NCBI GenBank assembly: GCA_014239335.1
Contig: JAAZZC010000239.1
Coordinates: 1-56,442 of the forward strand
Length of the DNA: 56,442 bases
Direction: 5' to 3'
DNA from: Verrucomicrobiales bacterium
GTDB lineage: Bacteria > Verrucomicrobiota > Verrucomicrobiia > Verrucomicrobiales > DEV007
Positions 1 through 48,315 of this stretch are shown here, in pieces. The number at the start of each line of letters is the position of its first letter. Position 1 is the first letter of the stretch. The translations under genes were made by a program, and so were the position numbers. Below the pieces are notes generated by a model that did not search any database, had not been told where the DNA came from, and was given only the letters and a program-made list of their open reading frames with translations.

Positions 1-787
1 CACGCGTATTATCCACCAAGTGAAAACGAGCCAAGCGATGAAGGAAAGTGTCGGGCAATTTTCCATTTATCAATTCTTTTTTCTCGCCAGCCGTGACCCA
101 AAAATTATCTCTACCGAGAGACGCATTCATTATTTTACGGTAAGTATTTTCCGTTTTTTCATAACCTCCTAAGACCTTAGTTGTTACTCTTATAACCAGA
201 CCTCCTTTGGGTGGACTAGGATTGTACCTAGGATCAGACTTACCTTTTGTTATTTTACCAAAGTCTGTGACTCGAGGTTCTTTCATAGCTTTCCTCATCA
301 TATTGATCACACGTTCAGCGCCACGATTGTTAGAAAATCCGAGCAATTTTCCTGATGCGTCAGCAACGTAAAGCCCCTGAGTAGTTCCCTTGCCGACCTT
401 CCTTGGTCCCTGGTTAGCTATTTTTTGATAGAAGGAGCCCTCATTGTCTTTTTGTCGGCGCTGATAGGCCTGATCTATAGCTATCGGGATAAAATTTTCT
501 TTAAGTAATTTGACGACTTCAGGATTTTTAAAAGTAGACTCACGGTCCAGTACACCATTGTTTCACGTACAAGTCATGGGATGCCCATCCATGGCCCAAA
601 TGAAAATCAGTTTGTTCTGTTGATTGGCATCATTTTGGCCATCAATGACTGATATTTTCCAAGGAATCGAACGCCAAGTTTCATCAGAATCAGGCTGCAA
701 GCTCTGGTGTAAAGTTTTGAACTCTTCATGTGTAAGTGACCAAGATATTTGGCTAATTCCCAAAAAAATGAGAAGAAAGTATTTCAT
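1..787 (-). CDS. Exported thioredoxin-fold (Thioredoxin_7/DUF255-like) protein, candidate selenoprotein. In-frame TGA at 563-565. The 3' end runs off the window.
   Basis: The minus-strand ORF 787->566 encodes a signal peptide (MKYFLLIFLGISQISWS) followed by ...KLIFIWAMDGHPMTCT, then TGA. The same frame stays open for about 187 more codons to position 1 (NNGVLDRESTFKNPEVVKLLKENFIPIAIDQAYQRRQKDNEG...). The context resembles the beta1/redox-motif/alpha1 part of thioredoxin-like proteins. Confidence 0.6.
535..549 (-). other. Small hairpin 13 nt downstream of the in-frame UGA (UGGAC-CGUGA-GUCUA); possible minimal bacterial SECIS
   Basis: Hand folding gives a 5-bp stem (one G.U pair) and a 5-nt loop. 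G and U fall at positions 23-24 counted from the U of UGA, the same positions as the SelB-contacting G23/U24 of E. coli fdhF. The stem is short and no energy was computed. Confidence 0.3.
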
Positions 788-2702: not shown

Positions 2703-3260
2703 CTACTTCTTTGGCGTGATTTTTTTCGTGTTTTTATCAACCTGAGCCTTGATATCGACCTGAGTGGTTTTTACCAGCTTGGCGACTTCGTTACCCAAAT
2801 TGCGGGCAATTAAACCGCTAGGATCACAGCCTTTGCTGATAGCTGCGATTTTGCCACCCTTTCCAATGAGAAAATTACTGGGCATGGTCTTGGTATCAAA
2901 AATCTTCCAGCTATCTTTTGTCGGATCCAATGCGTACTGCATGTTTAGTTTTTTTGTTTTCACATAAGTCGCGAATTTATTATCCGGCTCAGCAAAAACG
3001 GCGACGAACTTAATGCCGTCTTTCTTGTAGGCTTCATGTAGTGCTTGGAAATAGGGCAACTCACGATCGCAACCGAGACAACCGCAGGTAAGCCGCACCA
3101 ATACCGGTCCATTCTTAGCCAGTTTAGCAAGGTTGATTTCCTTGCCTTTGGTGTCCTTGATTTTGAATTCAGGAGCAGCATCGCCGACCTTTAATGGATC
3201 AGCATAGGTGTTCCAAGTCGTGGCGAGAATGAGTGTCAAAGTGGCAAGAATACTTTTCAT
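2703..3260 (-). CDS. Exported TlpA/redoxin (AhpC/TSA-like thioredoxin-fold) protein
   Basis: Signal peptide MKSILATLTLILATTWNTYA. VGDAAPEFKIKDTKGKEINL...VLVRLTCGCLGC contains a CxxC. I chose the ATG at 3260 over the TTG at 3308 used by the ORF track. Confidence 0.75.
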   Translation of the reverse strand: MKSILATLTLILATTWNTYADPLKVGDAAPEFKIKDTKGKEINLAKLAKNGPVLVRLTCGCLGCDRELPYFQALHEAYKKDGIKFVAVFAEPDNKFATYVKTKKLNMQYALDPTKDSWKIFDTKTMPSNFLIGKGGKIAAISKGCDPSGLIARNLGNEVAKLVKTTQVDIKAQVDKNTKKITPKK

Positions 3261-3535
3261 TATATTTCCAATGGAAAAAATCCTACATGAGTAAACAGGC
3301 CGCTCCAACCTTTATTTATATATTACAGGAAACATCTACGGAAATAGACTCGCTAGGCCTGGATTGTTTTATCTAGGCTATTTTGTTATAATCATAATAT
3401 GAAAAGGCCGTTCATTATCATTTTATTCTTTTTTGTTCTGCCAGCGGTGACCCCCTTAACCTTTTTTAGTTTCTACGATGACCTTACCGTCCTTTCCTCT
3501 TGACTCGACACCCCGAGGACAGCTTCAATTTACCC

Positions 3536-4960
3536 ATGTTCCGAATTCTTTTTCTCTTTTCTCTCACCTTGGCATTTACCTTAACGTCCCTATCTCTTGA
3601 GGCAGCCAAAGACAAACCCAACTTCATCATCATCTTCACTGATGACCAGGGTTATGGTGACCTCAGCTGCTTTGGCTCGACCAAAATAAAAACTCCAAAC
3701 ATCGACCGTATGGCTAAAGAGGGGCGGAAGTTTACCAATTTTATGGTGGCGTCTCCTGTCTGTACTCCCTCACGCGCAGCACTTCTCACAGGCTGCTACC
3801 CAAAGCGCGTCGGCATGCACCAACACGTGCTCTTTCCATCTTCCACTAAGGGACTAAACCCCTCAGAACACACCATCGCCGATCACCTGAAGAGCCAAGG
3901 TTACGCCACCGCCGCCTTCGGCAAGTGGCACCTCGGACATCACCCTGAGACACTTCCTCAAAAGAACGGCTTCGACACCTACTTCGGAATTCCCTACTCA
4001 AATGACATGAATCATCCAGATAACAAAGGTAAGCCTCTGGGCCGATCCCCAGGCATGGATGTGCTCTGGAAAGACCCTGAGTCCACGCTCACCAAGTGGA
4101 ATACCCCGCTAATGGAAAACGAAAAAATTGTGGAGCTACCTGTCGACCAGCGGACAGTCACTCGCCGTTACACTCAGAAAGCTATCGATTTCATCACAAC
4201 CAACCAGAAGAATCCTTTTTTTGTCTACTTGCCGCATTCAATGCCCCACATTCCTCTCTACGTTCCCGATGATGTTCGCGATCCGAACCCCCTGAACGCC
4301 TACACAAACACCATCGAACACATCGATGCCGAGGTTGGGCGCCTCATGGACAAGGTACGTGAACTGGGCCTTTCAAAGAATACCTATGTAATCTATACAA
4401 CCGACAACGGTCCCTGGTTGCCATTCAAGCACCATGGAGGTAGCGCCGGCCCCCTCCGTGACGGCAAAGGCTCAACCTTTGAGGGCGGCCAACGTGTACC
4501 CTGCGTGATGTGGGCACCTGGACGTATCCCCGCAGGGACCGAATGCCACGAACTCATGGGAACCATCGACTTGCTGCCCACGATCGCCGCCCTGACCGGC
4601 ACCTCACTCCCCGCCGATCAGAAAATTGACGGCCTGAACGCTTCGGCTCTGCTCGCTAAGGACGCCAAATCCCCACGCAACGAGTTCCTTTACTATACCT
4701 CGCGAGGCGACATTCAGGGTCTGCGGCAAGGCAAATGGAAACTTCTGGTAAAAAAGAAAAAAAAGCCCAGAAACGCAGGTAAGAACTGGAAAGCCCCTGC
4801 CCCTGAAATTCTACTTTTTGACCTCATCGCGGACATGGGTGAAAAAAACAATCTGGCCAAGGAGAATCTAAAAAAGGTTAAGGATCTCACTGCTCGCATG
4901 GATGAACTGGACGCTGAGATCACCAAGAATGCTCGTACTCCATGGCACAAATCAAAATAA
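3536..4960 (+). CDS. Sulfatase (arylsulfatase A/GALNS-like), exported
   Basis: NFIIIFTDDQGYGDLSCFG, canonical CTPSRAALLTG, GKWHLG and TTDNGP. The ATG at 3536 gives the signal peptide MFRILFLFSLTLAFTL. Confidence 0.9.
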   Translation: MFRILFLFSLTLAFTLTSLSLEAAKDKPNFIIIFTDDQGYGDLSCFGSTKIKTPNIDRMAKEGRKFTNFMVASPVCTPSRAALLTGCYPKRVGMHQHVLFPSSTKGLNPSEHTIADHLKSQGYATAAFGKWHLGHHPETLPQKNGFDTYFGIPYSNDMNHPDNKGKPLGRSPGMDVLWKDPESTLTKWNTPLMENEKIVELPVDQRTVTRRYTQKAIDFITTNQKNPFFVYLPHSMPHIPLYVPDDVRDPNPLNAYTNTIEHIDAEVGRLMDKVRELGLSKNTYVIYTTDNGPWLPFKHHGGSAGPLRDGKGSTFEGGQRVPCVMWAPGRIPAGTECHELMGTIDLLPTIAALTGTSLPADQKIDGLNASALLAKDAKSPRNEFLYYTSRGDIQGLRQGKWKLLVKKKKKPRNAGKNWKAPAPEILLFDLIADMGEKNNLAKENLKKVKDLTARMDELDAEITKNARTPWHKSK

Positions 4961-9454: not shown

Positions 9455-10399
9455 TCAGACTTTGATGAGCTGACTCACGTGACTCTCGACAGCGTCCCCG
9501 AGCCCATCAATATTGTATCCTCCCTCAAGGATAGACACGAGCCTCCCGTCCGAATACTTATGAGCAACATCAAGGAGAACCTTAGTCAATTCGGTAAAAT
9601 TCTCATCAGTGAGCCTGAAATGACCAAGAGGGTCCCCGAGCCTAGAATCAAAACCGGCCGATATCAGAACAAGATCAGGTTTAAATTCTTCCATTGCCTC
9701 CATGAAGTCTTCACTGAAGAAAGGTCCCAGCTCTTTGAATCCTGAACCTGCCGGCATGGGCCGATTCATGGTCGATCCTTCGCCTTTCCCGTTACCGGTC
9801 TCATTATGAGCCCCGGTGCCAGGGTACCAGGGTGATTGATGGGTACTAAAATAGAAAACCGAACCGTCATTATAAAAAATGTCCTGAGTCCCGTTCCCGT
9901 GATGAACGTCCCAGTCAATGATAGCCACCTTCTCGGCCCCGTGCTTGGACTGGGCGTAACGGGCAGCAATGGCCACATTATTAAAGATGCAAAAACCCAT
10001 TCCACGGTCCGCTGAAGCATGATGGCCCGGGGGCCGGACCGCACAAAATGCATTATTACACTTTTTATCAAAAACGTTATCAATTGCGTTGAGCACTGAA
10101 CCGGTAGCCTGCGACGCTACCTTGTATGATTCCTTGCATACATTCGTGTCACCCGTACTCAACTCTTTTTTGCCTTCAGAAATGTCCTTCCTCACAGTGT
10201 CCAAGTACTGAGCAGTATGGCAGCCTAGGATCTCAGAATCTGTCGCATTCCTAAGATCAATTTTTAGACACTTTTCTGGAACTCCTCTTTTATTAAGAGC
10301 TTCAGTAATCGCTCGGTAGCGGGCCGCGGATTCCGGGTGCCCCGGACCAGTGTCATGTTTTTTGAATACCGGATCCAGTAGTAGAGCAGTCTTTGCCAT
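9455..10399 (-). CDS. Histone deacetylase-family (HDAC/AcuC-like) zinc amidohydrolase
   Basis: [31 protein letters not shown] and EGGY motifs. Confidence 0.9.
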
Positions 10400-15546: not shown

Positions 15547-17079
15547 CTAGCCACGCTTTCTCCATGGCTGGGAACTTTTAGATACGGGTCTTCTCTGCTT
15601 CTTAGATAACTGATCAGTTCCCTCAGCAAAGTCATACCAAACCTTTATAAGTTGATTCCTTAACTTTGGCCTGGACTTGGACAGATCCTTCAGTTCGGTC
15701 CGGTCTGCGACCATATCATAAAGTTCCCAAGGGCCGCCACGAGCCGAAACCACTTTCCATTTTCCTTTGCGGACTGCACGATTATTGCCAAAATGAAAAT
15801 ACAGAAACTCATGATCTTCTCGTTTCTCCCCCTCAATAATCGGTAAGAGGGATTTCCCCATTAATTTTGAGTTTGGATTCTTGTCAGGGTAATCAACCCC
15901 GGCCAGATCCATGCAGGTAGGCATAAAATCAACGAGATGCCCCACCTGATCTGTGATGGCACCTTTCTTTGTTTTTAAACCCTTCGGCCAATGAACGATC
16001 ATCGGGCTACTTATGCCACCCTCGTGTTGGTTCTGTTTGTACCAGCGAAAAGGTGTGTTACCCGCATGCGCCCAACCAGTATCGTAAGTCCAATAACTCT
16101 CAGGATCCCACGGCATCTTATCAGCGCCTCGTGTCCGCTCAAAAGGACAGGCCCCATTATCAGAACAAAACATAAATAAAGTATTTTCAAAAACACCAAG
16201 TGCTTTGAGCCTTTCAACAAGTTTCCCTATACCTTGATCCATTCGATCAACCATTCCTGCATAAGCGGCCATACGAAAGTCCTCCCAGTCCTTTTCTTTA
16301 TCAGTGAGATCATTCCATGGCCTAACGTTCTGAGGTCGCGGGCTCAATGGCCAGTCTTTTTTTATCAACCCGAGATGAAGTTGCTTATCATAACGTTTCT
16401 CTCGTAACCGGTCCCAGCCTCCCGTATACTTGCCGCGGTATTTCATGACTTCTTTCTTAGGTGCCTGAAGTGGGTAATGGGGGGCATTGTATGCGAGGTA
16501 CAAAAAGAAAGGCTTGTCCTTATCCTTCTTTAAACTCTCATTCACAAAACGAATTGCATAGTCCGTGTTCGCGTCCGTAGTATAAAAACCTTCCTTCGGA
16601 ACATCAAATTTCTTACCATCAAGTCGAAATGAGTCATCACCAGTAAAGAAATTAGTGGCACCGCTCAGATGACCAAAGTATCGACTGAATCCTTTATCAG
16701 TCGGCTCCTTTTCCAGATGCCACTTCCCTACCATCAATGTCTGATAGCCTGCAGGCCTGAGAACCTCGGCAATAGTTGGCCCATTGGACAATTTAGCAGA
16801 GCCTGCTTGCCCGCAATACATTCCGGTCAACAGATCCACTCTGGAGGAATGACACTTGGCTGTATTATAGAACTGAGAGAATCTGAGACCGTTCTCAGCT
16901 AAACTGTCTAGGACAGGGGTCTCGATCTCTCCGCCGTAACATCCCAGATCTGCAAATCCAAGATCATCGGCCATGATCAGAACAACGTTGGGCCTTCCAG
17001 ATGCATCTGAAATATCTGGCCACGCATAGCAATAAAGGAAAGCAATTAGCAGGAAAAGTTTTCTTATAAAATAGATCAT
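15547..17079 (-). CDS. Sulfatase, exported, with an atypical C-H-S-S-R motif
   Basis: NVVLIMADDLGFADLGCYG, AKCHSSRVDLLTG, GKWHL and CSDNGA. Confidence 0.85.
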   Translation of the reverse strand: MIYFIRKLFLLIAFLYCYAWPDISDASGRPNVVLIMADDLGFADLGCYGGEIETPVLDSLAENGLRFSQFYNTAKCHSSRVDLLTGMYCGQAGSAKLSNGPTIAEVLRPAGYQTLMVGKWHLEKEPTDKGFSRYFGHLSGATNFFTGDDSFRLDGKKFDVPKEGFYTTDANTDYAIRFVNESLKKDKDKPFFLYLAYNAPHYPLQAPKKEVMKYRGKYTGGWDRLREKRYDKQLHLGLIKKDWPLSPRPQNVRPWNDLTDKEKDWEDFRMAAYAGMVDRMDQGIGKLVERLKALGVFENTLFMFCSDNGACPFERTRGADKMPWDPESYWTYDTGWAHAGNTPFRWYKQNQHEGGISSPMIVHWPKGLKTKKGAITDQVGHLVDFMPTCMDLAGVDYPDKNPNSKLMGKSLLPIIEGEKREDHEFLYFHFGNNRAVRKGKWKVVSARGGPWELYDMVADRTELKDLSKSRPKLRNQLIKVWYDFAEGTDQLSKKQRRPVSKSSQPWRKRG

Positions 17080-23970: not shown

Positions 23971-24047
23971 TTTTATCCACTCACTTGCGCGCATTCAGAG
24001 TTCGGCCCTTCTCGGCAAACACTAAAGAACCCCTTCACTACAAAAAC

Positions 24048-25439
24048 ATGAATAGAATTTCAGTTCCTGTTATACTCCTAACCCTTGGTATATTTCTTAA
24101 CTTTGCAGTCAAAGGAGCCACTCCCAATATACTTTTTATCTTTGCAGATGACTGGGGCTGGGGCGATCTCAGCTGTCATGGGCATCCCTATGTAAAAACA
24201 CCTAATATTGATAGGTTAGCAAAAGAGGGCACAGACTTTCATCGCTTCACTGTGGCCAGTGGCGTCTGCTCTCCTAGCCGGACCGCTGTGATGACTGGTC
24301 ATTTCCCGGCACGCTACAACATTAATGGTCATTTCGCATGGGTTCCCAGTAATGCTAGGAGAAACATGCCTGACTGGCTCAATCCAGAAGGGCCTCTCCT
24401 CTCCAAGTTTCTCAAAAGTGCCGGTTATGCAACTGCCCACTTCGGCAAATGGCATCTTGCCAATGACATGATTCCTGACTCTCCTTTGCCAAGCCGATAC
24501 GGCTTTGATACTTATGGAGCCTTTAACTGCTCAGGTAAGCAAATGCCAGTTCACGAAGATGCTAAAAGCACCATAGCATTTATTGAGAACAGTAATCGTG
24601 CTGGAAAGCCCTTCTTTGTGAACCTATGGCTTCATGAACCTCATACTCCGTTTCATACCGTAGAAAAATACCGCAAGCAATTTCCCAAATTAAAAGAACA
24701 AGACAATATTTATGCTTCGGTACTGGCACATGCCGATGATCGTGTAGGTGAGGTGTTGGACGCACTGGATCGCTTACAGCTTACAGAAAATACATTAGTC
24801 ATTTTCAGTTCGGATAATGGGCCGGCCAGGGCATTGCCTGATACTGCGCTAAAATCGATGCACGATACCGCAACGGGTGAAGGATTTAATATTGCAGCCG
24901 CAAAAGGTATCACTGGTGGACGCAAAGGATACAAGGCTTCGCTATTTGAAGGCGGTGTAGGGGTCCCCTTCATCGCACGTTGGCCTAAACATATAGCAGC
25001 AGGCAAAATAGATAAGACATCCATCCTATCTGCTGTGGATCTACTTCCAACTTTCTGTGAAATTGCAGGAGCGAAGCTCCCAGGGTCCTACAGTCCTGAT
25101 GGAATGAGCCAGGTATCAGCTCTGAAAGGAAAGGGCCAGAGTCTCCGTCAAAAACCTCTCTTCTGGAAAGCAACCTCTCCCTGGCCAGCTCGAAAATCAA
25201 AACCTGACCACTGGGTCTCCTATGCAGTCGTAAGCAAAAAATGGAAAATGGTAACTAATCGGAATTCTCAATATGTCGAACTGTATGATTTAGTCATTGA
25301 TCCATTTGAAAAAAATGACCTTAAAGAAAAATACCCAGACAATGTAAAGCAACTAAAAAAAATGTTAACTCAGTGGCAAGAATCCCTCCCAAAAAAGCCG
25401 ACCGGCAATGTCTTTTCAAAACTGCGTGAGAAAAAATGA
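24048..25439 (+). CDS. Sulfatase, exported
   Basis: NILFIFADDWGWGDLSCHG, canonical CSPSRTAVMTG, GKWHL and SSDNGP. The ATG at 24048 gives a signal peptide. Confidence 0.9.
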   Translation: MNRISVPVILLTLGIFLNFAVKGATPNILFIFADDWGWGDLSCHGHPYVKTPNIDRLAKEGTDFHRFTVASGVCSPSRTAVMTGHFPARYNINGHFAWVPSNARRNMPDWLNPEGPLLSKFLKSAGYATAHFGKWHLANDMIPDSPLPSRYGFDTYGAFNCSGKQMPVHEDAKSTIAFIENSNRAGKPFFVNLWLHEPHTPFHTVEKYRKQFPKLKEQDNIYASVLAHADDRVGEVLDALDRLQLTENTLVIFSSDNGPARALPDTALKSMHDTATGEGFNIAAAKGITGGRKGYKASLFEGGVGVPFIARWPKHIAAGKIDKTSILSAVDLLPTFCEIAGAKLPGSYSPDGMSQVSALKGKGQSLRQKPLFWKATSPWPARKSKPDHWVSYAVVSKKWKMVTNRNSQYVELYDLVIDPFEKNDLKEKYPDNVKQLKKMLTQWQESLPKKPTGNVFSKLREKK

Positions 25440-26891: not shown

Positions 26892-28373
26892 ATGCGTAGC
26901 ATCATGACAGACATGCGAAAATTCATAATAATCACTCTAGCCATTGCTTTCAGTACTCTTAGCAGCTTCGCACGCAAACCTAACATCATCTTTATCCTTG
27001 CCGATGACCTAGGTTATAATGAGCTCGGGTGCTTTGGACAGAAATGGATCAAAACACCGCACATTGATCGCCTCGCCAAGGAAGGAATTAAATTCACTCA
27101 ACACTATTCTGGGCAGGCAGTCTGCGCGCCTTGCCGCTGCGTGCTCATGACAGGAAAACATACTGGGCATGCATACATAAGAGATAATGGAGATCCTAAG
27201 GACGGATCCACTAAACATTTCCCTTTCCCGGGACAGAATCCAATTCCAGATGATGAAATTACTATCGCAGAAATACTAAAGACCCAGGGCTACACAACCG
27301 CAGCCATCGGCAAGTGGGGACTCGGTCACTTCGGATCTAGCGGAGACCCCAACAAACAAGGTTTTGATCTGTTTTTTGGTTATAATTGCCAGCGACATGC
27401 TCATAACCATTTCCCAAGGTTCTTGTGGAGGAATAATAAAAAAGTTCCGTTACCTGGAAATGATCGGAAGCTGGATGGAAAGATCCACTCTCAGGACGCA
27501 TTCACCGAGGAAGCTCTGAGCTTCATCAAGAAAAACAAAGAAACCCCATTTTTCCTTTACCTTCCATTCGCCATTCCTCACCTAAGCATTCAAACAACGG
27601 ATAAGTGGCTAAACGAATACAAGAAAGTGATCCCTGAAGAAAAACACACTCATAGAGGTTACCTTAAGCATCCTTTCCCACGCGCTGGATACGCAGCAAT
27701 GATCACACAAATGGATGACTCTGTCGGACAAGTCCACTCACTAGTCAAAGAGTTAGGACTTGATAATGACACCTTGATCGTTTTCACGTCTGACAATGGA
27801 CCAACATTCAATCGACTCGGAGGTTCTGATTCTGATTTTTTCAAGAGTGCCGGCGTCTTTAAGGGACTCAAAGGGAGTCTCTATGAGGGAGGAATCAGAG
27901 TCCCAACGATCGTTCGGTGGCCAGGAAAAATAAAACCTGAGACCACTAGTAACCATATCAGTGCTTTCTGGGACTGGATGCCAACACTCTCTGAAATTGC
28001 AGGGACCAAGGCACCTGATGTTACGGACGGCATCTCATTATTGCCGTCCCTGCTCGGCAAGAAGCAGGAATCTCATAAATTTTTATATTGGGAGTTCCCA
28101 TCTTATGGGAGCCAGCAAGCTGTCAGGTTAGGGAATTGGAAAGGGATCAGGCAAAAGATATCCAAAGCAAAGACAACCGCTGAAATTAAAACTGAACTTT
28201 ATAATCTCGAACTGGATCCCGGCGAAACTAAGAATGTCGCTGATCTTAATCCAGAAATACTGGAAAAAATTGAATCAATCATGGTCAAGGAACATGTACC
28301 CAGTAAGCTGTTTCCTATCCTCCCCGAAGAACGTCTCAGGGCACGTAAAAAAAAATTAAATAAGTCCAACTGA
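26892..28373 (+). CDS. Sulfatase, exported
   Basis: [19 protein letters not shown], the [11 protein letters not shown] (CxPxR) motif, GKWGLG and TSDNGP. Confidence 0.9.
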
Positions 28374-33087: not shown

Positions 33088-33714
33088 GTGAAGCTGTATT
33101 CAATACTCGACCTTGGTTACGTTGATGAAAAAGACATAGCCATCAAAACTGAATCAATCTGCGATTCAGGGATCAGCATGCTTCAACTCAGAGCAAAAAA
33201 TCATGATCCCGAAGGGATCCTAGAAATGGCTAAAATTCTAAGGCCTATCTGTTTGAAGTACGAAGTTCCATTCATTATCAATGATTACCCTGAAATTGCT
33301 GCCGAAGTCAGCGCGGACGGCGTCCATATAGGACAAAACGATGGAAATTTAGAGGAGGCTCGAATTTTGGCGGGAAACTGCAAGATTGTAGGACGCTCTA
33401 CCCATTGCCCAGAACAGGCCAGGGACGCTCATAGGGAAGGAGCTAATTATATAGGATTTGGACCTCTCTATCCTACAGCCACTAAGCCCGGAAGACCGGC
33501 GATCGGATTAAATGAAATTATACGGGTCCATAATGAAGTGCCATTACCAATATTTTGCATCGGTGGTATCACAGAACAGACACTCCCCGAAGTATTAAAT
33601 GCTGGGGCTCAGAACGTCGTTATCGTCTCGAATCTCTTGCAAAGTGAAGACATTAAATCTTATGTCTCGCGAATCCAAAGAATCGGAAAAAAGAACTCAG
33701 ATCAAAAATCATGA
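33088..33714 (+). CDS. thiE: Thiamine-phosphate synthase
   Basis: MLQLRAK, INDYPEIA, DGVHIGQND and FCIGGI. GTG start. Confidence 0.85.
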   Translation: MKLYSILDLGYVDEKDIAIKTESICDSGISMLQLRAKNHDPEGILEMAKILRPICLKYEVPFIINDYPEIAAEVSADGVHIGQNDGNLEEARILAGNCKIVGRSTHCPEQARDAHREGANYIGFGPLYPTATKPGRPAIGLNEIIRVHNEVPLPIFCIGGITEQTLPEVLNAGAQNVVIVSNLLQSEDIKSYVSRIQRIGKKNSDQKS

Positions 33715-36987: not shown

Positions 36988-39900
36988 TTACTCCCCGGGA
37001 AATAGAAAATTGACGCGCATTCGGAAGAATTTTTTCGTGTGTAATTCACCTGCCTCATCGTTCCTGAGAGTTAATGTTTCCGTGCCATCTCCGTTATCAT
37101 TGGCGGATCCGATTTGGATTGTCATGGGGTGCCACGTTAATAGGTCTCTGGAGGTTTCAGCAATATAATTGAGATCTGCTGCGTTTTTCTGGCGACGGAA
37201 ACTAAAATAAAAGTGGCCCTCGGACATGGTAGTCGTCGGAAGACTTCCCGGTGGGTTCGGTACACGTGGATCGAGGCCGAAGGCGTATTTAAGAAGGTTA
37301 GAAGTGCCGTCGCTGTTCAGGTCGACCAAAGGTTTGCTGATCGACAAGTTGTTACGTTCTGCTTCGGTGAAGTATTGCGTTTGCCAGCTTTGGAAATCCA
37401 TCCCAAAGCTTGTGTTCGGCTTGCCCGGGTTACCGTGGAGTTCTGCGGAGATCCCCCACGCAAGCGAGTTGCCCCAGGAATCGATATCGGCAGCATTTGC
37501 GTCGCGGATGTGCAGTGAACGACCGCCGCCATCGGTGGCCGGATACCAATCACTGTCACCGTAGGCGAACTGCTGAATGACGTTCCCCGGCTCGTCGCGC
37601 AGATCTAATCGCTCACCGTTGTTGCGCAGGTTGGATCTTGGATATTCACCAACAACTGGTAAGGCTTGGCCGTATCGTGCTTCGAATGCAGTGCGATTGC
37701 GCACTGCTACGACATAGCCGCCAGCAGGGACCGTCGTACCGATCGGGAACGTGAACGAGATGCCGTCTTGAAAGTGTACGCCTCCCACATTAAGCGGATC
37801 AGTGCCAATGTTTTTGAACTCGATGAACTCGAACTCGTTGGGATCATTGCTCACCGCGAGTTCGGCTGGGGTGGTCGGTAATGCCGGATTATAGTGGATT
37901 TCGGTGATACGCAAAAACTCGGGTGGGGTCGGTCTTGTTATCGTGCTGGTGATCGTGAGATTGTAAGTGTCGAGCAAGTTGTCCTGAAAATCGTAGGTCT
38001 CCAGCGCGATCGCATTTGCGCCAGTCAAAAGCGGTAGACTCACCCGCCACGTGTCACCATTCAACCATTCTACGGCCAGCGGCGCATCGTTGCCGGCGAG
38101 CCGGAACTGGCGAATATTGATCCAACCCTTGCCTTCGATCACGGCCGAGGTGTCGGCGACAGAGAAGTTGTTTCCGCCGTTAGTGGTGACGCTGAACTCC
38201 ACGTCCGATGGTAATTGTGATAGCGCAAAGTTTCCGCGGGCGTTGATATATCCCGCCTGACTTCCAAAATTCTGGCTAACTAGGCTTCCATAGTGTGTCA
38301 GCCAAGTGCTCATATAAGTTGTGTTAAAAGTCGTGTTAACTAGATCCTGAACATGCCCCCAGTAGAGGCGCCTATACTTTGGAATGTTAATCACATCACT
38401 CAAGTTGCCACCACCGGGTAACATCGACGAGTTGATGCCAGAGTTAAACACGAAGTCCATGTCCCACGGGAGCGCTGTTACTCCACGGCCATTCTCTGGA
38501 ACATAGATACGGATATTATGGCGCAAACCGCCTTGAACAAAGGTGTCGCCGATTCCGCACAGCAAAGTCATCGCCGTGTATCGACACCACTCATCGACGT
38601 CCATCCACTCGCCGATCTCGCCTGCAAGCTGTGCAGCCGGCAAGTCGAACATCTTACAGAAATTGATCAGTCCGGAGTAGTCGTCTCGTCGCCGTCCGGT
38701 ACGGATCTCGAATGATGCGCGGGAATCTTCCTTACTGTCGCCTAGATCGCGCATGTCGGTACCCATGTGGGTAAATGGTATCGGCGGCTTAAATCCTTCC
38801 GTGCCACCGATACTCGACACCGGGTCGTAGGTAATATCTAGGTTGAATACACTCCCGTTGGAATCATTGGAAAACTGTGATTCGGTAAACAGCCCACCGT
38901 AACCGGCCATCAGCATCTGTGAGGTACCGGTGTAGGTATTACTGGGGCCGACCAAGTGGATCAGCTCGTCATACATGGATGGGATTCCGGCATGGTTGAA
39001 CATGTGCTTCACGAAAATTTCGTGCTGCTGCCGAGCGACTGGCGTGCGCGCCGAACGATCGATGCTCAGGCTGTCGTGTATACCGCGGAAGAGCTGATCA
39101 GCAGGCAGGCCGATGTTGAACCCGCGAAAGGAAGAGCCGTCGCGTGCCCGACCGGCGCCGCTACCGCGCAAGCGCACTCCAGCATTATAGAAAATCTCGC
39201 GGCGATTGTAAATTATGGCACCTCCGAGCCGTTCATTACTCATCAAATTGAGATTACTGAGCATGAAATTGCGGTCGCTGTCGAGCATGATCAAGCGTAC
39301 CTCCGGCACAGCGAGATTGGAGCCTTGACCGTTGTCGACTTGAATCAGGGCACGCGAATCTGGACCAGATTCAGGCGCAAACGACTGAATACCGAGCGCG
39401 TCGGCCGCTTCGATCCAGAACTGAATTACGGTCCCAGACGGTTGACCAGTAAGCAGTCCACGCCCATGCCCGTCGTTATCTACAAAGAAATTAAAGGGCT
39501 GGACTGGGCCTTCGTCAAAGCGCGCCTTCAGCACGAAGTCACCTAACCCATCGGGATCCGATACATCTGCCGTGATTTCAATAAACTCGTTAGCCGCTGG
39601 CACTGGCGGGTCATGACGCAGGTTCCTGAATGTCGGCCCAATGTTGGTCTCGAGCTGCGAGTTCACAGCACCTGGACTGCCACAGTTTTCCGGTCGGTCG
39701 AGCTGCGTCGTGCGCGCGAGCCGCTGATAGTAGCAGCGCGAATTGATCTGATTCGAGCCAGCCAGCCAGCGCGCGAGGAACGTGACCTCATAGATCTGGC
39801 CACTGAAGATCTGGCTATTGTTGATAAAAGTGGTCTCGAGATGATTGTGACGTGTGTCCGTCGCTCCCTTTGCGTTGAGGTGTAGGACATTGTTTCCGGG

Positions 39901-42630
39901 GTTGCCAGGTTCAGGGATGACGTTGCTGTGGCGGTGGTTGCCGAGGATGCGCCACTTGGTTGTGCCAGATGAGAACGACCCGTTCTGGATCAGTTCCTGC
40001 GCTGCACCATCAGGGTCACGCACCACGCTAACGTCGTCGATCAATACTTCGCCAGCACGCAACATACCAAGCCGGAACTCGTTCCAAGAAGTCAAGCCAT
40101 AGCTCTGTGATCCATTAGAGCGATAGCTAATTGTCTGCCACTGCGTCTTGTTAGACTCGTCACTCGCCGCCCATGCCTGTGGGTTGGAGTTGTCGGCATC
40201 CGGATCACGCAGTTCAAGACTTGAGCCGTTGCCGTCTGCGAGCGCCGACCAGCGACCGCCCTCAAAGTAGCGTACTTCATCGACCGGATTTTTGACACCA
40301 TCTTCGAGTCGGATGGTGTCGCTGGTATTGCTGAGCCGGTTGCGATAATTGCCAACGATTTTACCTGCAATCGATGGATATTTTGTGACTAGCGATGTGG
40401 GGTTTTCCGCGACGACCAGGAAATCGCCCGCGCTGATACTCGTGCCCTCCGGGAAGTTGAAATCGATTCCACCGTTGATCGACCATCCCGTAATATCGAT
40501 CGACGCATTGCCTTTGTTGAATAGCTCAATCCACTCCTCGTCGCGTTCGGTGATCGGCACTGTTGGAACTGCGGTTAAGGCCACCAGTTCTGCACCGAAA
40601 ATGATATCACTACTGGCGGGAAACTGCTGATGAACCTCGACCGAAAGGCGGTTACTTCCGACGACCAGGCTCCCGGGTGGAATAGCAAAGGGCCCTTGGT
40701 AACGAGCGTTCGGCACACCCGGGCTAGCGGTCGTCGAAACATCGATCGCTCCATTCGGCAAGTTGAACCGATACACCTCGACTCCATTAAGGAAAAAGAT
40801 CGCTCCATCATCAATGATGTGCCGCAGTTGAAGTGCACGGAGTTTGTCCTTCTGCTTAGCGTCCAGAACGAACTCGGTCTCGAAGTAATAGGTTACAATG
40901 GAATTGGTAGCGGAAGGCGCAAAGTTAGTCCTCAGTGGCTCTGGCATAGACGCAGGCGCCGTTTCTGATCCGAGCAGTGCCGGCCCGCTAAACCAGTTGA
41001 AATTGTCGACCAAGTGCACGTCCCGTTCCCAATTAGAACCAAGATCGGCACCGCTTTCATTGTATCGCCACGTCGCCTCAATCGGGATCAGTGTGAGCAT
41101 TGAACTGATTCCATCGCTGCCCGGATCTTCGCGGAAATGATACATGATTTCGTTAATTACTATGTCTGTGTTGAAGTCGAAGCGGTTCGGTGCGCCGAAG
41201 GTCAGTTCGTCAGGCACTAACATTTTTCCATCATGCTCGGCCGAGAAAGCACATGGTAAGTCTTTGGCGCGTGCCGCGTGGATAAGGAACTCCTTCCCGG
41301 GCGAATACAGGAAAAGGCGGTCACCTTTGGCCGGGCGAAAGCCGAGCTCAGCTTCGTCGATGACCAGAAAACCACCAGCGGAGATCATGGTTGTGTTGGA
41401 AATCGTGTAACTCGTATCCACCGTGCCACGTGATCCAAGCACATAGTTCCCCACATCGATGTTCTCTTCCCCGGTATTGGCGAATTCGATCTGGAAGCTG
41501 GCGTTACCAGCACCGGTGATCTCGCTGATGACGAGGGAAACTTCCTCTATAGGCAAGATCTTCTGAGTCATATTCAGGTCGGCGCCGAAAATGATGTCGC
41601 TGCTGCCGCTGCTCTGCTGGTGAACTTCTACGGAAAAGCGGTTGGTTCCCGTGACGAGGGCATTGGTGGGGAGGATAATCGGCCCTTCGTAAGTAGCGTT
41701 GCTCACGCTGCCTCCAGACGTCGTCGATGCGTCCACTGCACCGGGGTCCATGTTGAAGCGCGGCAAAATCTCCGTGCCATTGATATAGAACACTGCACCG
41801 TCGTCAATCACATGGCGCAAAATCAAGCTATCAATATTCGCAACCTGCTCTGCCGTCAGTTCGAAGTCGATTTCGAAGTAGTAGGTGAGGATGTCATTTT
41901 CTCTCGGATTTACGAAAATCGTCACGAGTGTTTCCGGTAACGACGCGGCGGTGGTTTCGAAACCGAGCAGTCCGGCGCCCGTCGGCCAAGCAGGGTGCGC
42001 GTTAAGGGCCCAATCCTCGCCGAGGTCGGCTCCGCTCTCATTGAATCGCCAAGTGGAATCGATTCCAAAAATTTGTGTTGGCGGACCAATTATTACTTCG
42101 ATAGAAAAATTCTGTGCTCCCGGCGTGCCGCCGACTTCGGCGCTGGCACGCCAGTTTGCCGGGTCGGCACTGCCCGTGCCTTCGTCTGCCTTGGCCAAGG
42201 TCGCTCCCGAACCGTCGGCTCCGACTGGCCACACTCCGCTGTCGCCAAATTCAATCTCGTTCATCAGTCGCCCCGAATTGTTATGCAAGCGCAGACGCTC
42301 GCCATCGTTGTTGAGTTGTCCTTCCCACGGGCCGAGGGCGACCGCCCCGAGCTCGGCGGGATTACCGCTGATCAGCAGATAGCCTCCAGCGGGAACCACA
42401 GTTCCAGCGGGAATCACGTAGTCGACTCCTCCTGCAAGGCGCCAGTGCGAAACATCGACGTTGATGGCCATCTGGTTGTGCAATTCGATCCACTCCGGCT
42501 TTTCCGCCAATTCGGGGTGATATTGAATTTCATTGAACACCACGACGCTGTCGGCATGTAATTTTTCCGGCAAGGCAACGATGCTCATTATGCCACAAAG
42601 CAAGAGCCAGCGTGTGTAAGGAGAAATCAT
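36988..42630 (-). CDS. Giant secreted multidomain protein (about 1,880 aa): lamin-tail domains (LTD), a duplicated galactose-binding-like module, a CotH kinase-family domain, a C-terminal LTD and a C-terminal beta-sandwich module
   Basis: Signal peptide, then LTD signatures (VVFNEIQYHP...EWIELHN...VSHWRL; EEWIELFNKGNASIDITGWSI; ITEIHYNP...FEFIEFKN). CotH-like region: IIYNRREIFYNAGVRLRGSG ... HNIRIYVP...WDMDF. The tail contains DLNSDGTSNLLKYAFGLDP and ends in ...FFRMRV. Confidence 0.85.
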   Translation of the reverse strand: MISPYTRWLLLCGIMSIVALPEKLHADSVVVFNEIQYHPELAEKPEWIELHNQMAINVDVSHWRLAGGVDYVIPAGTVVPAGGYLLISGNPAELGAVALGPWEGQLNNDGERLRLHNNSGRLMNEIEFGDSGVWPVGADGSGATLAKADEGTGSADPANWRASAEVGGTPGAQNFSIEVIIGPPTQIFGIDSTWRFNESGADLGEDWALNAHPAWPTGAGLLGFETTAASLPETLVTIFVNPRENDILTYYFEIDFELTAEQVANIDSLILRHVIDDGAVFYINGTEILPRFNMDPGAVDASTTSGGSVSNATYEGPIILPTNALVTGTNRFSVEVHQQSSGSSDIIFGADLNMTQKILPIEEVSLVISEITGAGNASFQIEFANTGEENIDVGNYVLGSRGTVDTSYTISNTTMISAGGFLVIDEAELGFRPAKGDRLFLYSPGKEFLIHAARAKDLPCAFSAEHDGKMLVPDELTFGAPNRFDFNTDIVINEIMYHFREDPGSDGISSMLTLIPIEATWRYNESGADLGSNWERDVHLVDNFNWFSGPALLGSETAPASMPEPLRTNFAPSATNSIVTYYFETEFVLDAKQKDKLRALQLRHIIDDGAIFFLNGVEVYRFNLPNGAIDVSTTASPGVPNARYQGPFAIPPGSLVVGSNRLSVEVHQQFPASSDIIFGAELVALTAVPTVPITERDEEWIELFNKGNASIDITGWSINGGIDFNFPEGTSISAGDFLVVAENPTSLVTKYPSIAGKIVGNYRNRLSNTSDTIRLEDGVKNPVDEVRYFEGGRWSALADGNGSSLELRDPDADNSNPQAWAASDESNKTQWQTISYRSNGSQSYGLTSWNEFRLGMLRAGEVLIDDVSVVRDPDGAAQELIQNGSFSSGTTKWRILGNHRHSNVIPEPGNPGNNVLHLNAKGATDTRHNHLETTFINNSQIFSGQIYEVTFLARWLAGSNQINSRCYYQRLARTTQLDRPENCGSPGAVNSQLETNIGPTFRNLRHDPPVPAANEFIEITADVSDPDGLGDFVLKARFDEGPVQPFNFFVDNDGHGRGLLTGQPSGTVIQFWIEAADALGIQSFAPESGPDSRALIQVDNGQGSNLAVPEVRLIMLDSDRNFMLSNLNLMSNERLGGAIIYNRREIFYNAGVRLRGSGAGRARDGSSFRGFNIGLPADQLFRGIHDSLSIDRSARTPVARQQHEIFVKHMFNHAGIPSMYDELIHLVGPSNTYTGTSQMLMAGYGGLFTESQFSNDSNGSVFNLDITYDPVSSIGGTEGFKPPIPFTHMGTDMRDLGDSKEDSRASFEIRTGRRRDDYSGLINFCKMFDLPAAQLAGEIGEWMDVDEWCRYTAMTLLCGIGDTFVQGGLRHNIRIYVPENGRGVTALPWDMDFVFNSGINSSMLPGGGNLSDVINIPKYRRLYWGHVQDLVNTTFNTTYMSTWLTHYGSLVSQNFGSQAGYINARGNFALSQLPSDVEFSVTTNGGNNFSVADTSAVIEGKGWINIRQFRLAGNDAPLAVEWLNGDTWRVSLPLLTGANAIALETYDFQDNLLDTYNLTITSTITRPTPPEFLRITEIHYNPALPTTPAELAVSNDPNEFEFIEFKNIGTDPLNVGGVHFQDGISFTFPIGTTVPAGGYVVAVRNRTAFEARYGQALPVVGEYPRSNLRNNGERLDLRDEPGNVIQQFAYGDSDWYPATDGGGRSLHIRDANAADIDSWGNSLAWGISAELHGNPGKPNTSFGMDFQSWQTQYFTEAERNNLSISKPLVDLNSDGTSNLLKYAFGLDPRVPNPPGSLPTTTMSEGHFYFSFRRQKNAADLNYIAETSRDLLTWHPMTIQIGSANDNGDGTETLTLRNDEAGELHTKKFFRMRVNFLFPGE

Positions 42631-42639
42631 CAATGAGGA

Positions 42640-44373: not shown

Positions 44374-46335
44374 TTATTTGCCCCGAAAGGCTTTACCGTT
44401 CCGGTAATTGCTAAGCGCGGCCCGGAGACCGGCATCATTAGCACCTACTGATTGAGCATAATGAAGCGCTCTCGTTGTAGTTTCGATTGCTCCCTTAAAG
44501 TCACCAGTTTCAGCGAGTGCTGCTGCCAGTGTAGACAGTGTTGTGTGGTTTTTTCCACCATCTGCTTTAATGATTGGCGTAATCAGTTTGACTGCTTCCT
44601 CACCGTTCCGCAATTCTGAATCAGGATGCGTAGAAAGAAGCCAAGCTAGATTATTTGCGGGGAACATCCAACCGGGACGGACTTGAAGTGATTTTCGATA
44701 ATGCGTGACTGCATCGTGGCCCTTTCCTGTGGCCTGCAAGGCATTGCCAAGTTGAAAATGCGCTACAGCATCAGTCGGTTTCATTCGGACACAAGCACGA
44801 AAATGATTGAGGCTTTCTACCAAGTTACCACTTCCGGCTTCGGCTATGCCAAGATTAAAACGGAAATCAGGATTGTCCTTATAAACAGAAAGTGCAGCTT
44901 TGAGATGATTGCGTGCCGGTCGGATCTGATTATACTTTAAAAGCAGGATACCGGCACTGCGGTGATAGTCAGCTTCGTTCTCAGTAGTAGCCGATATTCC
45001 GGCAAAGACCCGAACGGCTTGTTCTAAATTATTTTCATCGAGCAAAAGCCTTCCAAGGTAGAGGCGGGTTTCTTCTGACTCGAAGCGTAGAAGATAATCT
45101 TTGAGATAGCGTTTGCGCAGTGATGGGTTTCCGGCCCTAGCAAATGATTCTGCTAAACGAATCGCCTGTGGAGGGAAAAGGTCCGAAGCCCAGCGTCCAG
45201 GGAAAGGCACAGCTGCATCACGGGCTTCAATTTCCGGTTTGCTCAGTAGAGCTACGTCATCAAGAAGCGTGAAAAGAGGAACGTGACCTTTGTAAATTGC
45301 TGCGACCCGACCTTCTTTATCCAATAAGAAGCTAGTAGGGATAGGCAGAGGTTGCTGTAGCTCCACAAATGTTCGATGAAAAATGTCCAACACATCGAGA
45401 ATTTCCGGTGACGCCTTTCCACTGTTAAATGGAAATGTTATGGGAGTAGTCTTCCGCTGGTTTTCGTCTAGAAGGCCAACATTTAGAGCAACTATATCTA
45501 ACCCAGCTTCACGGATTTTTTTCTCGTGTTTAGTCCACTCGCTAATTTCAGCGACGCATGGAGCACAGCTTTCGGACCAGAGATTAATCAGTTTAGGAGA
45601 ATTCCCCGTATCGGGGATACCTTCTAATCGTGGCAATGGAATGCGACCGATGAGCCAGGTCCGTGTAGTATCATTTGATTCATTAAAAGTAATTTGGCTA
45701 GTCTTTATCGCTAAATTTTCTGCCGGGGGTTTCCACAACACTGCCTGCCCTTTGCCTTGTTCTAATGTGTGGTATTGATGCATTTTTAAACCACTGATCT
45801 TTTCGACTTTTCCGCCTGGCCAGTAAACTGTTGCACTTGAAATAGTGGCCTTATTTCCCAAGCCAAAATGAAGCCACTTACTCGATTGGGCAAGAAAACC
45901 ATCCCCTGCGCGGACGGTTTTACTACGCAACCTGTTATCACCTAAGTCTAGAACAACTCTAGCACCAACGGCATCTTTATTGCTTGAGGTGCCACTCAAA
46001 CGCAACGCCAGCCAGTCACCTCCACGACTGCTGTTGCGTAGGAGCCTTACGCGGGGAGCATTGCGGTTGCTAACCCAGAGGTCCTGGCTTCCGTCGAAGT
46101 CCCAGTCGCAAACTGCCACTGCCCGCCCATCATCATATAGGCTTAGGCCGGTAGCAGCTGAAGCATCAGTGAAGCGCCCATCCCTGGTATTAAGAAAGAA
46201 GCAATTACTTTCGTTCCCGCTGAAAGAACGTCCTTGGCCGATTAATTCTGTCAGTGCTTTCCACCCGAGTTTGTAGCGATCACTTGCTTTAATATCAGCC
46301 AGTGCGGCTGAAAGATTTTCAGGAGATTGAGACAC
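44374..46335 (-). CDS. C-terminal segment of a CRTAC1-like protein: last FG-GAP blade, ASPIC/UnbV domain, TlpA-like thioredoxin domain (CAPC) and TPR repeats
   Basis: CDWDFDGSQDLWVSNRNAPRVRLLRN, AVGARVVL...GDGFLAQSS.WLHFGLG (UnbV_ASPIC-like), LINLWSESCAPCVAEISEW, and TPR-like repeats at the C-terminus. It lies in frame with 46357-48192 across a single TGA. Confidence 0.75.
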   Translation of the reverse strand: MSQSPENLSAALADIKASDRYKLGWKALTELIGQGRSFSGNESNCFFLNTRDGRFTDASAATGLSLYDDGRAVAVCDWDFDGSQDLWVSNRNAPRVRLLRNSSRGGDWLALRLSGTSSNKDAVGARVVLDLGDNRLRSKTVRAGDGFLAQSSKWLHFGLGNKATISSATVYWPGGKVEKISGLKMHQYHTLEQGKGQAVLWKPPAENLAIKTSQITFNESNDTTRTWLIGRIPLPRLEGIPDTGNSPKLINLWSESCAPCVAEISEWTKHEKKIREAGLDIVALNVGLLDENQRKTTPITFPFNSGKASPEILDVLDIFHRTFVELQQPLPIPTSFLLDKEGRVAAIYKGHVPLFTLLDDVALLSKPEIEARDAAVPFPGRWASDLFPPQAIRLAESFARAGNPSLRKRYLKDYLLRFESEETRLYLGRLLLDENNLEQAVRVFAGISATTENEADYHRSAGILLLKYNQIRPARNHLKAALSVYKDNPDFRFNLGIAEAGSGNLVESLNHFRACVRMKPTDAVAHFQLGNALQATGKGHDAVTHYRKSLQVRPGWMFPANNLAWLLSTHPDSELRNGEEAVKLITPIIKADGGKNHTTLSTLAAALAETGDFKGAIETTTRALHYAQSVGANDAGLRAALSNYRNGKAFRGK

Positions 46336-46343
46336 GACCTGTC
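46331..46343 (-). other. Small hairpin 13 nt downstream of the in-frame UGA at 46357-46359 (GACA-GGUCG-UGUC); possible minimal SECIS
   Basis: 4-bp stem with a GGUCG loop. The E. coli fdhF SECIS apical loop is GGUC at nearly the same distance from UGA. The stem is short and no energy was computed. Confidence 0.3.
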
Positions 46344-46356
46344 GCCAATAGAAACT

Positions 46357-48192: not shown

Positions 48193-48315
48193 GCGGACAA
48201 ATGAAGAAAATCACTTAGATCCCTTCCTAACTACAGTTCTCAAATATAATATATATTTAACACTAGGATATTAAAAACAAGCAGAAACATGATTTGCATT
48301 CCTCCAAAAACTGAA

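Follow-up and report, generated by a model that had tools for sequence, protein, structure and literature searches.

The question raised by this locus is whether an in-frame TGA codon in a Verrucomicrobiales bacterium terminates a short exported peptide or encodes selenocysteine (Sec; U in sequence motifs). The window, that is, the whole stretch of DNA analyzed here, comprises 56,442 nt (GCA_014239335.1, contig JAAZZC010000239.1, positions 1-56,442, forward strand). On its minus strand, an open reading frame (ORF) begins with an ATG at 787 and runs for 74 codons (787..566; MKYFLLIFLGISQISWSL...LIFIWAMDGHPMTCT, ending ...GHPMTCT; the translation up to the TGA can also be written MKYFLLIFLGISQISWSL...KLIFIWAMDGHPMTCT). 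This ORF is closed by the TGA at 565..563, beyond which no stop interrupts the same frame over the 187 codons that lead to window base 1 (NNGVLDRESTFKNPEVVKLLKENFIPIAIDQAYQRRQ...). A first-pass annotation had described the ORF, the TGA, the open continuation, and a cysteine two residues upstream of the TGA, and had proposed a candidate selenoprotein. The coordinates and frame of the window bear out the description, including the cysteine (TGT at 571..569), and the proposal is supported by conservation of the TGA, by homologs with cysteine at the same site, and by a downstream hairpin with covariation and frozen synonymous sites. Based on these lines of evidence, we favor the interpretation, to which we assign a probability of about 0.9, that the UGA at 565..563 encodes Sec within a single uninterrupted gene. 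Its product would be an exported thioredoxin-like protein of a family that is widespread in marine Verrucomicrobiota and Planctomycetota.

As a single continuous gene, this locus would occupy 1..787 (minus strand); it is complete at the 5' end and cut by the window edge at the 3' end, so that 262 of about 374 codons are present. Full-length orthologs, found in L004 and L001, have 373-378 residues. A Sec-type (secretory) signal peptide is predicted by inspection at 737..787 (minus strand; MKYFLLIFLGISQISWS); it is charged at the N-terminus, hydrophobic in its core, and carries a small-x-small motif, the cleavage site having been placed by eye. Homologs have equivalent N-termini (e.g., MKLLLLIPIFFAQATFG), and it seems likely that the protein is exported by means of this peptide. 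The codon for Cys73, the partner residue of the putative C-x-U motif, lies at 569..571 and the candidate Sec codon, residue 75, at 563..565. The remaining coding sequence (1..562, minus strand) would complete the thioredoxin-like domain and begin a C-terminal domain without recognized relatives. In the window, no in-frame ATG, GTG, or TTG follows the TGA for 72 codons, and the conserved segment NNGVLDRESTF...QGPRK could therefore be produced only by read-through.

In public databases the family is found almost entirely in two pieces. A search with the joined protein recovered 912 relatives, and among the top 120 almost every one is 295 residues long and begins with [MV]LDRESTF, four codons 3' of the TGA position. 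A search with the 74-residue N-terminal piece recovered 477 relatives, and the best 120 of these are all 62-121 residues long. Together, the short N-terminal matches and the downstream starts at one place indicate that gene callers split the family at the TGA codon everywhere, and NCBI records label both halves "hypothetical protein." When the DNA is read directly, TGA is present at the identical codon in 47 of 47 sequences, namely the window, 41 loci obtained by scanning GTDB species representatives (mostly Verrucomicrobiota, with several Planctomycetota metagenome-assembled genomes [MAGs], 45-99% identical), L001 and L004, and three much more distant members that represent 50%-identity clusters (L132, L133, and L134); for some of the set, identity falls to about 30-45%. 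All 41 genome-scan loci thus carry TGA, and in L001 (an NCBI MAG) and L004-L007 (JGI) the codon follows ...GHP[LM][GA]CT. Across 42 sequences, the upstream residues W, A, M, D, G, H, P, and C never change, yet their codons vary freely at the third base; Cys73, for example, is encoded by TGT in 12 and by TGC in 30. From these codon patterns, we conclude that protein-level selection is acting on both sides of the TGA. The homologs do not end at this codon, a result that would have counted against the selenoprotein proposal, since all 47 carry it with coding conservation on either side; nor is it a sequencing error, another doubt attached to that proposal, because it recurs in dozens of independent assemblies.

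Cysteine does align with the TGA, as the proposal predicts. A profile built from the downstream part and searched against 1.8 billion cluster representatives recovered mostly N-terminally truncated proteins and a few full-length ones; the sequence G-C-T-C, with its second cysteine at the TGA position, is present in P0132, P0149, P0235, and the kinase-fused P0212. At the DNA level, the equivalent codon is TGT in L049 and TGC in L050. Cys-form homologs are single polypeptides. Such pairing of Sec and Cys forms is the classic criterion by which selenoproteins are defined (PMC13188914), and in this family the Sec forms appear to outnumber the Cys forms by a wide margin, which is unusual. Other residues also occur at the site: C-T-G in P0263, C-V-A in P0222, and C-S-S in P0266. 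P0212, P0222, and P0266, which are distant homologs, are Ser/Thr protein kinases of 812-1055 residues that end in the whole module (thioredoxin-like plus C-terminal domain); its location after a hydrophobic segment suggests an extracytoplasmic sensor role. The gene for the Cys-form P0149 (JGI 3300048101) lies in an apparent operon, flanked by an asparagine synthase-like gene and by radical SAM and SPASM genes, with gene boundaries that overlap or abut; this arrangement may offer a clue to what the Cys forms do.

Immediately downstream of the UGA is a small hairpin that resembles a selenocysteine insertion sequence (SECIS). The first-pass annotation had placed it 13 nt after the UGA with a loop G and U at positions 23-24, and the window agrees exactly: on the minus strand, a 13-nt spacer (562..550; AACAAUGGUGUAC) is followed by UGGAC (549..545), the loop CGUGA (544..540), and GUCUA (539..535); when numbering starts at the U of the UGA, positions 23 and 24 fall on the G and U of the loop. 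Taken alone, the window hairpin is no better than chance (z = -0.47; 53 of 200 shuffled sequences fold equally well), and its significance thus comes only from comparative data. RNAalifold, applied to an alignment of 75 columns, returned a single structure, the 5-bp hairpin, in which 99.5% of cells are paired, as compared with 17-47% in slid controls. Among distinct sequences, with the distant members included, pair 17-31 (numbered from the U of UGA) is UA in 31 and CG in 2; pair 18-30 is CG in 25, GC in 6, GU in 2, and UG in 1; pair 19-29 is GC in 31, AU in 1, and GU in 2; and pairs 20-28 and 21-27 are AU and CG, respectively, in all 34. Compensatory changes are thus found at three of the five pairs. 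The loop occurs as CGUGA, CGUGC, CGGCG, or CGGGA, with the general form C-G-U/G-N-N, and the near invariance of CGUG[A/C] suggests sequence-specific recognition.

The coding sequence around the hairpin is constrained at synonymous positions as well. Most conserved residues have a synonymous entropy of 1-2 bits across the 42 sequences, as compared with an entropy of 0 at codon +1 (AAC in 42/42), codon +6 (Asp, GAC in 42/42), codon +7, and codon +8 (Glu, GAG in 27/27). Codon +7 is CGT in 42/42 despite the six-fold degeneracy of arginine codons. Entropy is also low at codons +4 (GTG in 39/42), +5, and +9. The hairpin cannot form in the homologous region of the two Cys-form genes, L049 and L050. 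Given the covariation, the frozen synonymous sites, and the absence of the structure from the Cys forms, we conclude from the alignments that selection acts on the hairpin at the RNA level.

G23 and U24 are the contact bases of the E. coli fdhF SECIS. The resemblance to this element and to the bacterial SECIS (bSECIS) consensus extends to the location of the hairpin inside the coding sequence right after the UGA, to the 5-nt apical loop, and to loop positions 2-3, which are G and then U or G at nucleotides 23-24 (PMC13188914). The bSECIS geometry comprises an apical loop of 3-9 nt, an upper stem of 4-16 bp, a loop that opens with G[G/U], and a distance of 16-37 nt between UGA and loop (PMC13188914), and the family falls within it with a 5-nt loop, a 5-bp stem, and a distance of 18 nt. 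It differs from both in keeping the 5-bp stem only, with neither a conserved lower helix nor a bulged U. We considered two larger structures. A longer SECIS, with a lower stem such as that present in L023, was rejected because the lower stem cannot form in the clade of the window. A helix of 4-5 bp enclosing the UGA (columns 11-15 with 27-31; window 570-566 with 554-550, minus strand; G[U/C]ACG with [N]GU[A/G]C) is 89% paired in 39 sequences, with a fifth pair that is often broken, and was set aside as unproven; its variation (UGU/GUA vs. UGC/GUG) tracks genome G+C content.

The predicted fold places the TGA at a redox-active position. A model of the window family was obtained with AlphaFold for the Cys-form P0132 from an alignment of 90 sequences (predicted local distance difference test [pLDDT] 86.7, predicted template modeling score [pTM] 0.83); it replaced an earlier run on P0149 from a single sequence, which reached a pLDDT of 33.6. 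The P0132 model contains a thioredoxin-type β-α-β-α-β-β-α domain and is thus of the thioredoxin fold. C118-T119-C120 lies in the loop between β1 (IFVWAM, 106-111) and α1 (121-128), and the Sec-equivalent residue is the last before helix α1. In a Foldseek search of the PDB, the best matches are the PDI-related thioredoxin-fold proteins AGR3 (3ph9) and AGR2 (9i3u), with a target TM-score of 0.66-0.67 and a probability of 1.00, at an E value of only 5e-3; these matches cover the N-terminal domain only. For the C-terminal domain of about 220 residues, Foldseek found no credible relative in the PDB, and no Pfam relative was found. The first-pass annotation had likened the protein to the Thioredoxin_7/DUF255 group, and this resemblance is real at the level of the fold, though it does not amount to Pfam membership: PF03190 (DUF255/Thioredox_DsbH) scores 13.6-19.7 bits against a gathering threshold of 27 (19.7 for the window), PF13899 (Thioredoxin_7) scores 15.4-15.7 bits, also below its gathering threshold, and both similarities span the TGA. 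That annotation had also put the TGA at the second redox residue of a CxxC motif between β1 and α1. The position stands, but the motif is C-x-U (Cys, then Thr or Val, then Sec) and not CxxU. On the modeled structure, the C-x-Sec motif is located between β1 and α1 of an AGR/Thioredoxin_7-like fold.

Several observations suggest that the organism decodes UGA as Sec at specific sites. The earlier view that TGA is otherwise a normal stop in the window agrees with our survey, in which TGA terminates 7 of the 31 long ORFs at the expected domain ends; these include a sulfatase gene (1305-2639), thiE (33088-33714), and a deacetylase-family gene (9455-10399) in which the Pfam domain stops three residues before the stop codon. 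In the whole 56 kb, only two TGA sites are flanked on either side by convincing coding sequence. The normal stops and the restriction to two such sites imply that there is no genome-wide reassignment of UGA. The second of these sites lies at 46357-46359 in a gene at 44374-48192 (minus strand), where it joins a 611-residue ORF of FG-GAP/VCBS repeats (...NGFITTEDTGDL) to a 660-residue continuation, SFYWRQVV..., with UnbV_ASPIC, redoxin (WSESCAPC), and TPR regions. More than 100 homolog clusters end with ...DL directly before this TGA, and the codon is present in L051 and in 51 of 51 motif-bearing metagenome loci. Eleven nucleotides 3' of it is a hairpin, GCGNCA-GGUC[G/A]-UGNCGC, that shows strong covariation (one pair occurs as A-U, G-U, C-G, U-G, or G-C, and the closing pair changes from A-U to G-C) and has the loop GGUC, like that of E. 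coli fdhF. Read-through homologs have Ser, Ala, or Asn at the site and not Cys. Judged from these alignments, the second gene probably represents another unlisted selenoprotein family, with an unusual pairing of Sec and Ser. Because two independent SECIS-like sites occur at the same distance from UGA in one 56-kb window, we consider it very likely, on comparative grounds, that this organism decodes Sec.

Three other explanations of the TGA at 565..563 have to be weighed. It could be a genuine stop codon, in which case the locus would specify two products: an exported peptide of 74 residues and, from a start a short way downstream, a protein of about 295 residues. Public annotations do call two genes, and many homologs have a GTG four codons after the TGA that could serve as a start. 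In the window, however, this codon is GTA, and the next start-type codon is more than 70 codons away; the Asn-Asn-Gly between the TGA and the supposed start is invariant at the protein level. Moreover, a stop at this place would cut a single thioredoxin fold between β1 and α1, whereas the Cys forms are uninterrupted chains. We therefore consider two separate proteins very improbable. Still less credible is the idea that the TGA belongs to a pseudogene or arose through an error of sequencing or assembly. Nothing speaks for it beyond the bare stop codon in a single contig, and the same codon is occupied by TGA in sequences from many projects, and amino acids are conserved with synonymous variation on both sides, so that the comparative data refute it and its likelihood is negligible.

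The remaining explanation accepts that UGA is recoded but not to Sec, through hairpin-stimulated near-cognate read-through (by Trp, Cys, or Arg), a suppressor tRNA, or lineage-wide reassignment of UGA. Reassignment of UGA to Trp in some Verrucomicrobiota is reported in PMC13462651, the window and the fetched loci yielded no genes of the Sec machinery, and the read-through homologs of the second TGA family carry Ser, Ala, or Asn. Against this, TGA ends nearly a quarter of the long ORFs and has coding sequence on both sides at two sites alone, the residue aligned with the UGA at 565..563 is a cysteine beside a second cysteine in a thioredoxin-fold active site, and the position and loop of the hairpin fit the bacterial SECIS consensus. 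We regard recoding to another amino acid as improbable, and strongly favor the insertion of Sec.

Nevertheless, a number of observations weigh against insertion of Sec at this codon or against the redox role that we attach to it. Neither the 56-kb window nor the fetched loci contain selA, selB, selD, or a tRNA-Sec: ARAGORN found no tRNA-Sec in the window and 43 loci, and Pfam searches with 29 of the 31 long ORFs of the window revealed no SelA, SelB, or SelD, the other two being the halves of the second TGA gene, which were scanned against NCBIfam. The window hairpin is weak, at -3.2 kcal/mol with a G-U pair, and the 51 nt after the UGA have a different minimum-free-energy fold at -6.0 kcal/mol. 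It thus differs from the bSECIS consensus in missing the stability cut-off of -7.5 kcal/mol or lower (PMC13188914), which is reached in some homologs, for example L023 (-11.7 kcal/mol with an extra lower stem). Rfam gave no match to a SECIS or other family, either for the whole window at the gathering threshold or for bases 440-640 at E values up to 10. Much of the covariation separates few clades and so reflects a small number of independent events; more weight falls on the frozen synonymous sites. Several distant homologs (P0129, P0154, P0169, and P0236) have neither cysteine, which indicates that the family scaffold is not always redox-active. Finally, the redox function is deduced from fold and motif only, and gene neighborhoods are not conserved.

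We propose the following model for the expression and activity of this protein. The segment 787..1 (minus strand) would hold the 5' portion of one gene, the product of which would be an exported selenoprotein of about 374 residues. While the UGA is in the ribosomal A site, the hairpin loop would recruit SelB with Sec-tRNA(Sec), and codon 75 would be read as Sec; with G23 and U24 in the loop, the geometry would be that of a minimal E. coli fdhF SECIS. The involvement of SelB is inferred here by analogy with that system. After export, the N-terminal domain would fold as a thioredoxin-like module of the AGR/Thioredoxin_7/DsbH type, with Cys73-Thr-Sec75 in the β1/α1 loop, the classic redox-active position. 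Cycling of a Cys-Sec selenenylsulfide in the periplasm would then make the protein, as a best guess, a thiol/selenol oxidoreductase, to which the C-terminal domain of about 220 residues would supply substrate binding. For this specific function, a periplasmic thiol/selenol oxidoreductase with a Cys73-Sec75 selenenylsulfide redox center, the motif and fold leave us at roughly even odds; binding of a metal or metalloid is the alternative.

The closest known groups share parts of this design. Thioredoxin_7/DsbH (DUF255) and AGR2/AGR3/TXNDC12 provide the best structural similarities and the only Pfam similarities, and have their redox residues between β1 and α1; they differ from the window family, however, in having CxxC or CxxS in place of C-x-U or C-x-C, a shorter β1-α1 loop (GHPLGCTU in the window family), and no additional C-terminal domain of about 220 residues. 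B. subtilis YphP and the bacilliredoxins are C-x-C disulfide isomerases of the thioredoxin fold with the redox pair at the N-terminus of α1 but, unlike the window family, they are cytoplasmic, single-domain, and all-Cys, and they show no detected similarity to it in sequence. No NCBIfam family reaches its cut-off for the window protein family. The only selenoprotein-specific model with any similarity is NF041383 (VPGUxxT thioredoxin-like selenoprotein type 2, "OS_HP5"; E 2e-4 to 2.5e-3), and this similarity does not extend beyond the 65-70 thioredoxin-like residues at the N-terminus that surround the active site. At 17.5-21.4 bits it is far from the cut-off of 275; the motif is another one and the C-terminal two-thirds are dissimilar. 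A single residue between Cys and Sec is also found in the UshA-like, rhodanese form 3, ferredoxin-thioredoxin reductase, and Trx-like Sec.1 families (PMC13188914), but their folds or domains are others (COG0737, rhodanese, FTR, and PF13192) and none of their models matches the window protein. Within the main text of a 2026 compilation of 119 prokaryotic selenoprotein families, none has the domain, motif, or architecture of the window family (PMC13188914). The thioredoxin-like families in the GOS tables have only UxxC or CxxU; one GOS family of 15 sequences is labeled "Unknown," and whether it matches the window family could not be checked. The main texts of the deep-Sep and BSepDB papers do not mention the family. 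Thus, we propose that this is a new selenoprotein family, absent from NCBIfam and probably undescribed, that uses a known bacterial mechanism.

New selenoprotein families are reported regularly, and the mechanism of Sec insertion itself is not new. The significance of this family lies partly in the scale of mis-annotation, as hundreds of public clusters appear as pairs of "hypothetical proteins" divided at the Sec codon; its recognition would lead to corrected annotation in many marine Verrucomicrobiota and Planctomycetota genomes. The bacterial selenoproteome would gain one family and probably a second, and clear Sec usage would be extended to abundant polysaccharide-degrading marine lineages. 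A well-conserved SECIS of 15 nt could aid the modeling of SelB recognition and the engineering of Sec insertion, and the exported thioredoxin-like C-x-U center would be a testable new redox catalyst. The present family, in which Sec forms far exceed Cys forms and an exported AGR-like domain with C-x-Sec is joined to a C-terminal domain without known relatives, may together with the second unlisted family point to an unrecognized selenoproteome in marine Verrucomicrobiota and Planctomycetota that relies on unusually compact SECIS elements of 5-6 bp with a sequence-specific loop at nucleotides 21-26, a generalization that could go either way.

The surroundings of the gene offer little guidance to its function. 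Clustering of the neighborhoods of 42 loci yielded mostly shadow ORFs, the neighborhoods differ between lineages, and no functional lead emerged from them. One cluster of neighboring ORFs, which includes a window ORF, recurs in 14 of the 42 loci; its members are presumed to be sulfatases. This recurrence is probably a coincidence and not a functional link, since the window alone contains five sulfatase genes (1305-2639, 3500-4960, 15547-17079, 23985-25439, and 26892-28373). Five sulfatases in 56 kb are typical of polysaccharide-degrading marine Verrucomicrobiota. Between two of the sulfatase genes, about 1.9 kb from the selenoprotein gene, a gene at 2703-3308 (minus strand) encodes an AhpC/TSA-Redoxin family protein whose N-terminus resembles a signal peptide and which contains the motif TCGCLGC. 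The second TGA-containing gene is flanked by genes for two giant proteins with CotH kinase-like and Lamin Tail domains, of 1881 residues (36988-42633, minus strand) and 1630 residues (48289-53181, plus strand).

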